Assembly (NCBI GenBank): GCA_951406725.2
Contig: OX597822.1
Location: 11,284,001-11,348,000, forward strand
Source of the DNA: Octopus vulgaris
Taxonomy: Eukaryota
Direction: 5' to 3'
DNA: 64,000 nucleotides
In this document: positions 2,218 to 62,840 of the stretch, piece after piece
Layout: every line of letters starts with the position of its first letter
Position numbering within the stretch: the stretch's first letter is position 1
The notes under the pieces: model-generated
Seen by the model: the letters and a program-made list of their open reading frames with translations, nothing else
Told to the model about the DNA's origin: nothing
Databases searched by the model: none
Program-made: the position numbers and the translations under genes

Positions 2218-3500
<1,283 letters not shown>

Positions 3501-12221: not shown

Positions 12222-14285
12222 TATTTCATAAAATTTGTCATCATAGATAGTACAAAGATTGTGTAGCTTTGCGGGCTGGACAAATACATTAATGAATGAA
12301 AATGAAATAGAATGAATAAATGAGAGACGAAACCCAACACCCGCCGATTGGATTTTCCTCGAAAACATATTTTCTCTTTTAAAAAATCAATATGAGGTTT
12401 CAAACCTCTTACAAGAAGGAGGCAATAAAACCTCTTACTTAACATGTTTTTTTTTTAAACACACAATTGAGGTTATAAACCACTACAAATAATAGGTTTC
12501 AAACCCTATAACGAGGGTCTTTCACCTCCTACTCTTCGATATATCCATCGATATATTCATCATTATCTTCAATGCCGCTTGAGTTCCTGTATCCCGCCAT
12601 TTCCCATGCCTCACTCATGTAGGACATGTAAGTCGTGTAAGGGTCACCCGGCCATATGCGACACTCCTCCCCAAATTCTTTAAGCCTTTCCCACAAGGGA
12701 AACCTTATGACCTCCACAGTTATCTGCGGAGGCCATTCGGGATCCCGTGTGAAGGGCACCCACTGTCTCTTTATATTCTTCTACTATTTTTTCCGCCTCC
12801 CCGCCCTTATAGAAAGAGATAATTAATTGATCATCTTTAAGGGTGGGGTGGTTTCTTCCACCGTGGGTGGCACAACTTCGGGACATGAAGACGGCACATC
12901 ATCTCTCCGCTGAGATGACCCGTTCTTCTTCCTTCTTTTTTTTCTTTTCTTCCTGACTTCGGGAGAGTGGAGCTCTTCCGCTTTGTCCGGAGACTCTCCC
13001 CCACCTCCCGAAGCCTTAGGTTCTATCGGCGGGCAACTATTGTTGCCCGCCTTCTTCCTTTTTAATCCTTTTTGAGTTGAGGAGGCTGAAGCCTCCCCGA
13101 CCACATCCACCTCTTCAATTGACCGGGTAGGGGAGGTGGCATCTAGTGACTGTTCCAAGACCTTACTATGGTCCTGGGGGCAGTTCCTTTTAATGTGGCC
13201 TGGCTGCAGGCACGAGTGACACTTGGGGGGACGTCCCTCAAGTATCACCGGGTACCTGCAGCCAGCCATTTTTAAGAAATCTGGAAAAATCAGATCTGTT
13301 GCGGCCCATGGATTCCACAGGGTCAAAATCGCTTTTGACCCTTCCCAATCGACCGCCGGCAATACACTTACATTTAAGAGCCTGGGCCCGCCATCACCCA
13401 GTCCCCGTCGGATGGTATCTTCAATCCAATCCGCTTCGGTGCCTGGGGGCAACCCACATACTCAGGCTCTTATTAATTTCCTCCCGCAATATGACTGGGT
13501 GAACAGAATTTCCTTGCCTTCTAAAGGCTGACTCGCAAACTGGCGAACCTTTTCCCCGTTGTCAAATAGCAACCATACGGTTGCATGTTTGACACCATGG
13601 GATATATATTTTAAAGAGGACAAATAGTCTTGAAGTTCATTTTTTATAACTTGTTTTGGGAAGACGGTGATGGAATTAAGAACTTTAGAATAAGTTCTAA
13701 GCACCATCGTCTTCTCCTCCATATCTTTTAACCACTGCTTAGGCGGGTTAATTTCCCACTCTAAGACAGAGTTTTTCTTTTTAAGTTCCTTCTCTGCCAT
13801 GTCAAAAAACAGTTCAAAAGTAGTTCAAAAGACAGTCTGCCAAAAAATTAAACCGAATAAAAATAAAACAAAATAAAAGAGGAGGAAAGGAAACTGAAAT
13901 TAAAATAATGAAAAGAATGACCTAAAATTTAGAAAGAAAGAAAAAATAGAAGGGAAAAGTAAAAGAAAAACCTCACAAATAGCACAGACAGGCAATCCTT
14001 TGTATAATACTCCAAAAAGGTAATCCAAATGGTTTATTCTTGAAGTTCGGAAAAATTGTACTTTTTCTGGCGAGCTACGCCCACTAGAATTTACAAAAAA
14101 GAATTTTCATGCAAAAATTCTCAATTCACCGTTACGGTGATGAGAACCCAGTATTTTGCTCGCTATAGCGAGCTATTATTGACAATTTTCTTTTTGTTCT
14201 TTTTCTATTCACGGAGTCCAAAAAACTCACATCTTGTCACTGTAACAGTCCAGACCAACTAGTGTTGCATTCTGGGTAACCGGAA
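12222..14285 (-). mobile_element. Non-autonomous ORF1-only non-LTR retroelement (HAL1-like, L1/Tx1-type ORF1)
   Basis: 15-bp TSD GTAAGCAAGCTACTT at 12207-12221 and 14286-14300; 3' end ...TTTTATGAAATAA; gag-like ORF; no EN/RT motifs seen. Confidence 0.8.
12823..13800 (-). pseudogene. Gag-like ORF1 with CCHC zinc knuckle, one in-frame TGA
   Basis: ORFs 13462..13800 and 12823..13452 are in the same frame (RA*VCGLPPG); CHSCLQPGHIKRNC = CX2CX4HX4C; basic KKRKKRRKK tract; possible frameshifted extension to 12529. Confidence 0.8.
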
Positions 14286-19170: not shown

Positions 19171-19990
19171 TCAGGTCATCCCATAAGTTCTGTCCGATTT
19201 TACCTTTTTTTAAGATTGAATGAAATTTAATAGTATTTTAGAATGTCTAATTGAATTAAAAATTATTATTATGCATTTGTGTACATTTAAACTAACTAAA
19301 TATTATTTTACAGAATAATAGAATTAAAATTTCTATGACTAAAACGCTTTCTAACATGGAAGTATCCGGCACATAATGCTTTATGACTACAAAAAAGGAA
19401 ATTCTGCAGCCGAGGCGACTCGAAACATATACTCAATTTATGGAAAAGAATGTTTGAATGAAAGAACTTGCAAAAGATGGTTTGCAAAATTCAAAAATTG
19501 GAAATTTCAGCCTTGAAGATAAAGATCGAATAGGGCGTCTAGATGAGTTTGATAATAAGCTCTTTGAGGCATTACTTGAAGAAAATCGTGCATTATCAGT
19601 TAAAGAATTGGCAATAAAGATTAGTTCAAACCATACAACTGTTCATCGTCATCTTCAACAACTAGGAAAGGTTCCTAAACTTGGAAAATGGGTGCCTCAT
19701 GAATTGTCAGAAAGCAACCGCAAATCCCGAGATGACATCTGCTCTTCTCTGTATTGTCGCGAACTCATTTCACCCTTTTTGGATAGACTTGTGACTGGAG
19801 ACGAAAAATGGATCTTCTATAGAAATATTAAACGACGTAAACAGTGGCTTGGTAAAAGGGGAAAAGCTCAACCACTACCGAGAAGGGAACTTCATGGGAA
19901 AAAGTTGTTTTCTATATCTGGTGGGATTGCAAAGGAGTAATTCACTTTGAATTGTTACCACCTAATGCAACAATCAATGCTTAAGTCTAG
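19171..19990 (+). mobile_element. Mariner transposon, 3'-truncated
   Basis: TA + TIR TCAGGTCATCCCATAAG; transposase with WVPHEL and TGDEKW motifs. Confidence 0.9.
19356..19990 (+). pseudogene. Frameshifted mariner transposase (includes ORF 19458..19940)
   Basis: RHIMLYDYKKGNSAAEATRNI..., LGKWVPHELSE..., LVTGDEKWIFY, WWDCKGVIHFELL. Confidence 0.85.
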
Positions 19991-23475: not shown

Positions 23476-24484
23476 ATAGTCGTGGCTCCTTATCAAACGT
23501 ACTTTGGTATCAGTGAATACTTGCTTTCACTAGTGGCCTTGAGGTGTTCAAGTAAACCACAAGTAGAGAGAAAGAGAAAGAGAGAGAGAGAGGAAGAGAG
23601 AGGGAAGGTGTGAGAGAAGGACAGAGAGAAGGGAGGGAGAGAGGGGGAAAGAGAGAGAGAGAGCTAGAAAGAGAGAGTGGAGGAGAAGAAGAGAGAGGGT
23701 AGGTGTGAGAGAGAAGGACAGAGAGAAAAGAAAGAGAGAGGGGAAAGAGAGAGAGAATGAGATCTTGTCGAGTGTCCTATTGAACTAGGAGAAATTTCAC
23801 GACGTGGCAGCAGGAAGATAGCTTGCGCTGCATCAACATTATACTTCATCCATGTCCCCTGAGAGGATGAAATACAAAGTTGAGCTCATCGTAATATTAA
23901 ATCTGAGCACAATGAGCCGGATGTAACGGTGTAGGGCAAGCTCTTCCAATACTCTACAGAATTAACCAATCTAATTTATGTATGTGTATATGTATGCATG
24001 CATGTATGTATATTCACTTCTATTTGTAATTATTTGAAATCTTCCCTGTAAGAAAGGATCTAGTTTCCGACGAAGATACAAAGCCCTGTCATCGAAATGT
24101 ACATAATATAAGCAATGTCACATGCTAAACTTCATAATGTCTTGCACATTTTTATTATTACTCTTAGTGATTGTATTTCTAATGCGTAACTTTGTTGATT
24201 TCCATTTCTGAAAACCCTAACCTATCCAAATTGTCAGGTAGACGTTTAATAGCAAACGCGAGTGCCCCAGCTACAGGTATAAATGTGAATAGATTTTTGG
24301 CCTAAAATGTACGCATGTATGTCGGGACATGTGTGACTGTGTGGTAAGAAGCTTCCTTTACAACATATGCTCTTAAGTTCAGTCCCACTGCATAACACCT
24401 CGAGCAAGCATCGTCTGCTCTAGCCCAGACCAGAAACTTGTGAGTGGATTTGATGGACGGAAATGGCAAGAAGCTCGTTTTTTG

Positions 24485-24753: not shown

Positions 24754-25010
24754 AGTGTGTGTGTGTGTGTGAGTGTGTGTGTGTATGTATATATATATAA
24801 ATATATATATATGTATCTATATTTATATTTATATATCTATATATCTATCTATCTCTCTCTATCTATATATATATATGTATATATATGGGTACAATAAATT
24901 CAGGGTGAATACTTGATAAATATAAGCACCTATATATGCCAGCTAGTAGCATAGGTGATAGGATATATGTATCAAATGAAATAAATGAAAAACAAGACAC
25001 AAAGGATGTT

Positions 25011-25103
25011 GCGGTACATATGTTTCGGGCTTTATAGAACAATTTATTCTTACATCAATGCATAATCGATATAACAGATAGATCAAAAGCCTTCTTCAGC
25101 CGC
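25011..25103 (-). ncRNA. Type-I hammerhead ribozyme motif
   Basis: Reverse complement of 25330-25422; core intact. Confidence 0.8.
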
Positions 25104-25329
25104 GTGCCATTGCTACACCAAAGACCTGTATCACGTTATAAAAGGTTTGAGAAAAAACCGAGTATCATTGGGAAAGTATGTTTGTAAATCTTCATAGGCG
25201 TACATGGTACCATTAGACTCCAAAACAAATCGTCCATACCGTTTTTTCACTCGATATAGAATCTATATACTCGGTTTTTTTCTCAAACCTTTTATAACAT
25301 GATACAAATCTTTGGTGTAGCTATGGCAC

Positions 25330-25422
25330 GCGGCTGAAGAAGGCTTTTGGTCTATCTGTTATATCGATTATGCATTGAAGTGAGAATAAGTTGTTCTATA
25401 AAGCCCGAAACATATGTACCGC
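25330..25422 (+). ncRNA. Type-I hammerhead ribozyme motif with long loop II
   Basis: GCGG CTGAAGA A GGCTTT...AAAGCC C GAAA CATATG TA CCGC. Confidence 0.85.
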
Positions 25423-25498
25423 AACATCCTTTGCGTCTTGTTTTTCATTTATTTCATTTGATACACACACATATATAAATATATATATATATATATAT

Positions 25499-25636
25499 GT
25501 AGCTTGCTAACCAACCACATGGTTCCGGGTTCAGTCCCACTGCGTGGCTTCTTGGGCAAGTGTCTTCTGCTATAGCCCCGCGCCGATCAATGCCTTGTGA
25601 GTGGATTTGGTAGACGGAAACTGAAAGAAGCCTGTC

Positions 25637-25713
<77 letters not shown>

Positions 25714-25921
25714 TGTGTCTGTGTTTGTCCCCCTAGCATTGCTTGACAACCGATGCTGGTGTGTTTACGTCTCCGTCACTTAGCGATTCGGCAAAAGAGA
25801 CCGATAGAATAAGTACTGGGCTTACAAAGAATAAGTCCCGGGGTCGATTTGCTCGACTAAAGGCGGTGCTCCAGCATGGCCGCAGTCAAACGACTGAAAC
25901 AAGTAAAAGAGTAAAAGAGTA
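25499..25921 (+). mobile_element. SINE family A
   Basis: Near-identical to 46813-47214, with internal (TA)n(TG)n. Confidence 0.9.
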
Positions 25922-51412: not shown

Positions 51413-51575
51413 CAACAACAACATGGGAAAATACCTTAGGAATGAGAACCCAGGTTCGAAATTTTCCCAAGTCACCTGATGAAGGCTGGATGGTATATCA
51501 GTCGAAACGTTGTATTAACAACAATTGTGATGAGGACAAATAACCGTCAAATGTAACTAATGTAAATACTGTAAA
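51175..51575 (+). mobile_element. Family B SINE, most complete copy (tRNA head + (AAT/AAC)n + HHR tail)
   Basis: A box TGGCGTAGTGG; microsatellite 51255-51422; HHR 51471-51516; tail ATGTAA.TAATGTAAATA. Confidence 0.88.
51471..51516 (+). ncRNA. Minimal type-I hammerhead ribozyme motif
   Basis: GTCAC CTGATGA A GGCTG-gatggtatat-CAGTC GAAA CG TT GTATT. Confidence 0.75.
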
Positions 51576-58946: not shown

Positions 58947-59946
58947 TTTCCCATTCAAACTGCCCCAGCCTTTGGAATGTCATCCACCCTGTATGTGGCC
59001 GAGCATTATCCTGATGGAAGAACACTTTTTTGTCTTGAAACCAAAGATGGTCGGTTCTCTTTTAGCTCTGACTTAAAGCGCTCAAGCTGTACGCAGTAGA
59101 TCTCCTTTGTTATCGCTTGGTTTTGGTTTAAAAGTTCAAAGTGAACTAAGCCTTTCATATCCCACCAAACAGATAACCTTATGTGGGTGAAGACCTTTAG
59201 TCTGGGATGCCAGTGTTTCTCGGCGCTTGACATTTTTATAGCGAACTCATTTCTCATCACTAGTCACTATTCGGTCCAAAAACGGTTCATTCGTGAGACG
59301 TGACAGCAAAGAAGAGCACACATTACTCTCTGCACGCGATTAGACATGGAAAGTTTTTGAGGAACCCATTGGTCTAATTTGCTGACTTTTCCGATAGCAC
59401 GCACGATGAGCAAATCCGAGCTTCTCTGCTAGCTTCTCAACTGTAACAATGGGATTTTGTTCCACTAGGGTTTGCTGGACGTCTTTCTCGAGCTCTATAG
59501 ATCTTCCAGGACGAGGCTGTAGTTTCTGGCTCGGAATTTCTAGAACCACTGTCGACATTAGCTTATGCTTCCAGGACGAGGCTCGTCTTCTAGTCTGTAG
59601 TTTCCAGCTCGGAATTTCTGAAACCACTGTTGACACTGTCTAACGCTTATTGTCCGATCCACAAATACTGCATTAATATTCCTCACATTTTCCGTTGCGT
59701 TGTTGCCTTTATTGAACTCATAAAGCAAAATATGCCGAATATGCTCTTTTGTCAATTCCATTATAGCTTTGAAAAAAAATAACTGTTAAAATTGAACTGC
59801 ACTCGTCAAAACTTCCACTAATAATAAGTACAAGGTAAAATTACTACCTGCTTTTATAGCAAGTTGATGCAAATGGCTTATCCTGTTCCCCTCTGACTTT
59901 TAGTTCATGCAATTGAAAAAATGTTGTTAATTATGGGATGACCCAA
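58947..59946 (-). mobile_element. Mariner transposon relic with internal ~60-bp tandem duplication
   Basis: TIR rc TTGGGTCATCCCATAA (related to 19171); MELTKEHIRHILLYEF..., WWDMKGLVHFELL, FHQDNARPHT. Confidence 0.88.
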
Positions 59947-62334: not shown

Positions 62335-62840
62335 CCTTATGCATAGGACTCACTGAAACACACTTATAACCCGACATCGCAGATGTGGTACCGCGAAGCA
62401 ACAGAAAAGGCAGGAGCCATGATGGAGTTGCAATGTACATCAGTCTGTCGCACGCAAACTCAGTGTTAGGCACACTAATTCTACATAGAAGACAAATCTA
62501 CACAGTTATATTTACTGCATATCATCCATAAGATATCCCAAATCACACAAGTCTATTCGAAGACTGTCTTGCAAGAATAAAAGGGGTCTTAACCAAAATA
62601 GAAGAACGCATCAGTATACTTTTCATGAGAGACTTCAACCTGCTCAAGGTGAAATGGCCTGAAGTTCCTTTCTTCTTAGGAATGATGCAATGTGAGCTAA
62701 GTCAGATGGAATCCCTGCTCAACATCATCGACAATTTATATATGATGCGAATAACACTCCAATCAACCAGGGAAAGCAATCTACTTGATCTCTGCATCAC
62801 AAACAATGTGGATCTCATCCGTAATGTTATTCAAGATTGA
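62335..62840 (+). pseudogene. CR1-group LINE APE endonuclease relic
   Basis: CIGLTETHL, DGVAMYI, MRDFNL..VKW, TRESNLLDLCITNN. Confidence 0.8.

Follow-up and report, generated by a model that had tools for sequence, protein, structure and literature searches.

A probable Penelope-like insertion in Octopus vulgaris with inverted, hammerhead-bearing terminal repeats and a long helix II insert

Penelope-like elements (PLEs) are known to leave inverted 5′-truncated copies and to use (TA)n targets (PMC8557442; Craig et al. 2021); head-to-head inversions with palindromes at the junction have also been described (PMC3846280; Arkhipova et al. 2013), and a tail of 30–40 bp on one end only is an optional feature of the insertions (PMC3846280; PMC8557442). 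Metazoan PLEs carry dual minimal hammerheads on opposite strands, 100–700 bp apart, marked by an extra nucleotide that separates positions 9 and 10.1 and by a palindromic helix III (PMC4209133; Cervera and de la Pena 2014). In Poseidon of Anolis, cleavage by the hammerhead depends on protein, and insertion in vitro does not require the hammerhead (PMC11167929; Frangieh et al. 2024); the axolotl hammerhead HHR_Amex2 has weak activity on its own, which dimerization improves (PMC7229834; bioRxiv 10.64898/2026.07.22.740005). Penelope-like families have been annotated in Octopus vulgaris itself (PMC13282606). These sources are cited from excerpts, and comparisons with them extend to those excerpts only.

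Within a 64-kb window of the O. vulgaris genome (64,000 nucleotides of contig OX597822.1; coordinates below are those of the window), we find what is very probably an ordinary, inactive Penelope-like insertion, in which a 295-nt 5′-truncated minus-strand copy stands head to head with a 199-nt inverted copy, both ending at the 3′ end of the family by a TA microsatellite. A first-pass annotation had described inverted arms of ~198 bp around a ~100-bp spacer, and the arms indeed measure 198 nt (left, 24968–25165, minus strand) and 199 nt (right, 25267–25465, plus strand), with 101 nt between them (25166–25266); there is no third arm copy in the window. The locus resembles EN+ PLE insertions (PMC3846280; PMC8557442) in its head-to-head inverted copies, 5′ truncation, junction palindrome, terminal repeat of ~200 bp, and TA-microsatellite target; unlike those in the excerpts, it has no ORF by which to place its clade, no clear target-site duplication, and no one-sided 30–40-bp tail, both arms stopping at the identical base. 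The inverted-partner layout is thus one already known for Penelope-like insertions.

Each arm contains exactly the motif read in the first-pass annotation, GCGG-CUGAAGA-A-GGCUUU-(52 nt)-AAAGCC-C-GAAA-CAUAUG-UA-CCGC. It reads as a type I hammerhead on the minus strand in the left arm (25011–25103, predicted cut after 25015) and on the plus strand in the right arm (25330–25422, predicted cut after 25418, with a partly decayed insert at 25348–25399). The conserved core (CUGANGA, GAAA, and UH) is present in both arms together with helices I–III, and the motif ends 43 nt short of the arm end in both, near the 3′ end of the terminal repeat. These are the only two matches to a hammerhead descriptor in the 64-kb window, and 60 block-wise Markov shuffles gave none; Rfam matched neither motif at its gathering threshold or at E ≤ 10, a level at which there were 12 sub-threshold matches, all non-hammerhead.

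With metazoan PLE hammerheads (PMC4209133) the motif shares its type I topology, 4-bp helix I, extra nucleotide after A9 (the A at 25341), palindromic 15.2–16.2 segment, and occurrence in opposite-strand pairs 100–700 bp apart, and a possible bulged nucleotide in helix II recalls the D. virilis-type variant of the same source. It departs from the 6–8-bp helices given in the excerpt of PMC4209133 in that helix II holds a 52-nt insert with a predicted inner hairpin of 10 bp, and in the base of helix II, which is either an A·C mismatch or a G-C pair with a bulged C; the G10.1-C11.1 pairing requires that bulge and is 3.4 kcal/mol costlier than the register closed by A·C. Animal non-LTR retrozymes (PMC7229834; bioRxiv 10.64898/2026.07.22.740005) are likewise short non-coding units with a type I hammerhead in an animal genome, and axolotl HHR_Amex2 is alike in two respects, since its helix III has 2 bp and a tetraloop and the base of its helix II is weak. 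However, the retrozymes in these excerpts are head-to-tail tandems of 150–450-bp units, each with a hammerhead, whereas the pair here is inverted, its family extends upstream beyond the unit, and it is known from DNA sequence rather than from circular RNA. Poseidon (PMC11167929) also combines a pLTR hammerhead with an AT-rich target, but there stem II is where the ORF begins; at the present locus the motif gives rise to no long frame with an ATG start, and an open frame terminates a short way upstream of it.

Folding, suggested as a check in the first-pass annotation, gave a different answer for each arm: the hammerhead is the free lowest-energy fold of the left motif (−15.5 kcal/mol) but not of the right, where it reaches −11.8 kcal/mol under constraint versus −13.5 for the free fold. 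The helix III segment, CATATG, is palindromic, and a dimer helix through it is predicted at −7.0 kcal/mol versus +2.4 for the lone hairpin. A 2-bp helix III with a tetraloop can permit some monomer cleavage (PMC7229834), and by analogy the present motif may cleave as a monomer too.

The surrounding repeat family was examined in contigs of 4 of 24 listed public runs, aligned on 25110–25476 at 80% likeness (682 records in run X1, 206 in X3, 488 in X5, and 41 in X13); they represent organisms A, B, and C, with X13 taken, as a guess, to be RNA from A. In each of the four runs the sequence proves to be an abundant repeat. Summed contig depths, which are not copy numbers, range over the left-arm part and spacer from ~2,000 to 26,000 in X1, 350 to 1,440 in X3, and 7,800 to 33,500 in X5, and stand at 65, 7, and 115, respectively, in the junction bin (25266–25278). 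Depth is unbroken from 25110 to ~25262 in every run, collapses over 25266–25278, and recovers over the right arm; in the three DNA-like runs most bins of the spacer and arms exceed the junction bin ~50- to 400-fold. Loose contig ends in X3 and X5 indicate that the family runs on past 25262. The element therefore reads along the minus strand from ~25262 to 24968, and the spacer is its upstream part, so that spacer and left arm together form the longer 5′-truncated copy (24968–25262, minus strand, ~295 nt, reading leftwards). The ~100-bp spacer of the first-pass annotation is accordingly present, but it belongs to the family and is no foreign linker: up to ~25262 it continues the left arm, in minus orientation, and then come four fold-back letters. 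In X1 the summed depth peaks several-fold above the spacer at 25396–25434, the 3′ half of the hammerhead (~203,000 versus ~20,000), which suggests either numerous copies of very short length or sister families whose insert is a different one.

A plus-strand frame over the junction had been considered as a reverse transcriptase (RT) motif, which by eye we took it to resemble; it was rejected, the spacer being a minus-strand copy and the frame crossing the junction.

The junction itself lies in a perfect palindrome (25254–25268) with a 7-bp stem and a 1-nt loop, expected by chance within ±5 nt of a given point in ~0.4% of mononucleotide shuffles. At least four further joints from the spacer or left arm to the right arm, with other breakpoints, occur in one contig each at depths of 44–60 (25158>25417, 25245>25352, and 25257>25407 in X5; 25209>25449 in X1), so inversion points vary between insertions; none of the joints listed runs head to tail. 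The locus's own junction is bridged by one X3 contig (25211–25328, depth 4.9, six other letters, one gap) and thus exists outside this assembly, in organism B as well, and is not merely an assembly product. Together with the collapse of depth, the palindrome, and the adjoining TA tract, the further joints support the earlier reading as a Penelope-like pLTR with an inverted 5′-truncated partner. One of the X5 joints, 25158>25417, restarts beside the predicted cut at 25418, in a single contig with 27 letters between the two sides.

These features would fit a course of events in which the element's endonuclease cut an AT-rich target and reverse transcription stopped after ~295 nt; the new strand would then have folded back over a few bases, leaving the 7-bp junction palindrome, and synthesis would have resumed ~100 nt away at a 2-nt AT microhomology to yield the inverted arm. 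The hammerhead would be cargo of the element's terminal repeat, serving the RNA of the parent element, with cleavage that would probably be weak for the monomer and improved in a dimer formed through the self-complementary helix III segment.

A CA/TA microsatellite follows the right arm directly (TA-rich run, 25466–25499); the left flank has just a short ATATA, and a long TA tract stops at 24886, ~80 nt off. The pair had been placed inside (TA)n, a position our coordinates do not bear out, since the insertion lies at the left edge of the CA/TA tract, its likely target. No clean target-site duplication was found at the locus, where a short ATATA is present in both flanks, displaced by 5 nt in the right one; in microsatellite insertions such duplications are often not discernible. 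The 3′ loose ends of the family reach AT repeats in all four runs (the listed ends include 25445 and 25450). Both arms carry a 9-nt tandem duplication in the 3′ tail (25441–25460), and loose contig ends at 25450 suggest that some family copies are without it.

An open frame on the minus strand (25131–25262, 43 codons and a stop), which ends 27 nt before the hammerhead, is possibly the end of the parent ORF. As a short and therefore weak query it gave no phmmer match among 1.84 billion representatives, no candidate among longer proteins, and no Pfam family. No parent RT/GIY-YIG gene was found, the 43-codon frame being all there is at the locus; the assignment to PLEs, which is likely, therefore rests on the non-coding anatomy.

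A Pfam scan of 150 of the 214 frames in the window (the 43-aa frame and the longest 149 of 213 complex frames, a set that small exons would escape) returned transposon-type families and two sub-threshold stray matches only, and no host gene is evident around the locus in these frames. Copies of a SINE-like repeat flank the locus (25500–25920 and 24377–24474) and appear to resemble an octopus SINE. Decayed transposon pieces elsewhere in the window (12826–13824, minus; 19458–19937, plus; 59009–59785, minus; 62532–62837, plus) comprise a zinc-knuckle frame, two mariner-type transposase pieces, and a weak LINE endonuclease match.

The two arms differ by nine substitutions and one indel, an extra T in a T-run. 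All nine lie outside the core and stems, which total 41 nt, with four in the insert and five in the flanks; the chance that core and stems escape is 0.12 for the substitutions and 0.09 with the indel added, so this sparing is no evidence of selection. The first-pass annotation had observed that the differences avoid the core, and as a count this holds, though it is not significant (P about 0.1). The left arm is near the family majority sequence: the majority has the left-arm letter at 25308, 25322, 25350, 25379, and 25382 in the contig variant rows, and at two further sites, judging by the lack of variants where these are mirrored on the left; at 25434 the left-arm letter is a minority variant in the family. 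About eight of the nine substitutions are therefore private to the right arm, the shorter inverted 5′-truncated copy (P 0.04, or 0.07 without 25390, a site absent from the 40 of 48 variant rows listed), as is the T-run indel. Equal ageing of both arms explains this excess poorly; chance, conversion, or assembly error are candidate causes. Both arms share non-majority letters at 25325, 25327, and 25425, as expected if they were copied from one template. Relative to the left arm, the right-arm changes include three A>G, three G>A, and two transversions; the three A>G, in the insert, had been considered as fossil ADAR edits, an idea dropped because of the G>A changes and transversions alongside and the very small number.

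Among the 40 of 48 family variant rows listed there are no variable sites in 21 core and helix III positions, two in helices I–II (both retaining a wobble pair), four in the insert, and five in 23 nt of 3′ flank, with P about 0.1; variants across the family thus spare the core relative to the loops, as the earlier annotation had anticipated, but at a level that chance could give.

Two other origins were weighed against that of a PLE insertion with an inverted partner. One is a non-autonomous element of the fold-back or MITE-like kind, spreading as a fixed inverted pair with a fixed spacer, which would account for the near-perfect 198-bp inverted termini, the lack of a coding gene, and the length of ~500 bp. 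Against it stand the ~50- to 400-fold drop in depth at the junction relative to most bins of the spacer and arms (three DNA-like runs), the continuation of the family beyond the junction in the direction of the spacer, and the different breakpoints of four other junctions; the contig data largely refute this origin, and we consider it highly improbable. Alternatively, a single truncated copy could have gained its second arm later, by local inverted duplication during DNA replication or repair and independently of integration. The fold-back palindrome and microhomology at the junction would equally fit template switching in replication, and the change between the arms is uneven; but each arm ends where the 3′ end of the family lies, host flank was not duplicated along with it, and similar junctions turn up again in other copies of the family, so that a later duplication seems very unlikely.

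A further possibility is that the locus works as an RNA element of use to its host, transcribed and self-cleaving in both directions and edited by ADAR, along the lines of the functional inference in the first-pass annotation. The cores of both hammerheads are intact, the junction is found in organism B too, and repeat-directed editing is widespread in coleoids (PMC9068888, in the excerpt seen). Read-through RNA from either strand is predicted to pair 192–193 of the first 199 nt arm to arm at about −330 kcal/mol; the long dsRNA expected in the first-pass annotation is thereby supported, and, were it transcribed, ADAR could plausibly act on its duplex of ~192 bp, as on that of any close inverted repeat. 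The same fold, however, is predicted to block the hammerhead in the same molecule: on either strand transcription reaches the antisense arm before the hammerhead, and the motif is therefore predicted to be trapped by its own complement. In this model long dsRNA and self-cleavage would exclude each other in one molecule, and the claim that transcription in either direction yields a self-cleaving RNA is left unsupported; a hammerhead could be exposed only if transcription began within the spacer or close to it, and since the two motifs are on opposite strands, no dimer would form within one transcript. The sparing of the core is within chance (P 0.09–0.12), the hammerhead is no longer the fold that the right arm prefers, and no host gene is evident in the 150 of 214 frames scanned, from which small exons would escape. 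With the hammerhead locked in an arm–arm duplex, no host function is expected at the locus, and a working RNA element is very doubtful. In X13, A>G changes were counted at 5 places and T>C at 6, versus 4–5 and 2–5 in the DNA-like runs, counts that have no bearing on editing because contigs drop rare variants; the share of the locus's words in any one run is at most 0.27, and RNA specific to the locus did not come to light.

Read as an inactive PLE insertion, the locus itself matters little and is useful mainly as a pointer to an abundant family with a long, probably folded helix II. In the left arm the insert (25034–25085, minus strand) is 52 nt long and has a predicted 10-bp hairpin at 25050–25074; on right-arm coordinates, 25359–25368 pair with 25374–25383 over the same predicted 10 bp. 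Two common family variants inside the hairpin, at 25363 and 25366, both keep pairing, an outcome with P 0.36 because 12 of 20 possible transitions would do so. Loose contig ends at 25386 occur in all four runs (at least 10, 3, 4, and 2 records) and are best read as a variant shorter by 6 nt, in which the hairpin is fully Watson-Crick, although these are clipped ends and not aligned deletions. Conserved structure in loop II across the family, raised in the first-pass annotation, thus finds agreement in the variants but weak statistics.

Other common variants lie at 25351 (28–36% of depth) and 25397 (49–73%). Combined, the two would add 5 bp to helix II (fold −20.1 kcal/mol) and give the insert a z of −2.6 against 500 insert shuffles, or −3.4 with the shorter variant, values that are circular in that the variants were picked after the pairing was seen and their linkage was assumed. 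The 25397 variant breaks a second hairpin in the left arm's own fold, and the inserts of the window itself fold no better than shuffles (z −0.4 on the left, +1.5 on the right). It is plausible on these predicted folds that "loop II" is a structured extension of helix II; that the insert is a conserved, interrupted hairpin of ~46–52 nt selected as RNA structure, and so a distinct hammerhead architecture, is a tentative suggestion that we regard as rather less probable than not being so. If it were true, the insert might, for instance, bind the protein of the element or act as a switch controlling cleavage, and the architecture, present in very many copies and at least three related species, would have been missed by Rfam and by short-loop descriptors. 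Should the structure prove conserved and the motif cleave, counts of animal hammerheads made with short-loop descriptors would be too low, and the family would offer a many-copy test of the ribozyme's role in PLEs.

No description of a long helix II insert in PLE hammerheads was found in the literature searched; Lunse et al. or supplements may hold one, and relaxed descriptors with longer loops and half-cores 35–50 nt apart are mentioned in the excerpt of PMC8557442. In metagenomes, a degenerate long-loop pattern gave 108 matches, 4 of them with UH and a helix I of at least 3 bp, and an exact 20-mer pattern gave none; the matches were treated as chance rather than as relatives, none having a palindromic helix III or blastn similarity to the element.

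A second repeat family in the window has a minimal hammerhead (3392–3456 and 51468–51532, both plus strand), with CUGAUGA-A, a 6-bp helix II, and a loop of 8–9 nt. Helix I or III appears degenerate in each of its two copies, and neither copy matches the hammerhead descriptor. Both directly follow an (AAT)n tract, and they provide a within-genome contrast to the long-insert family.
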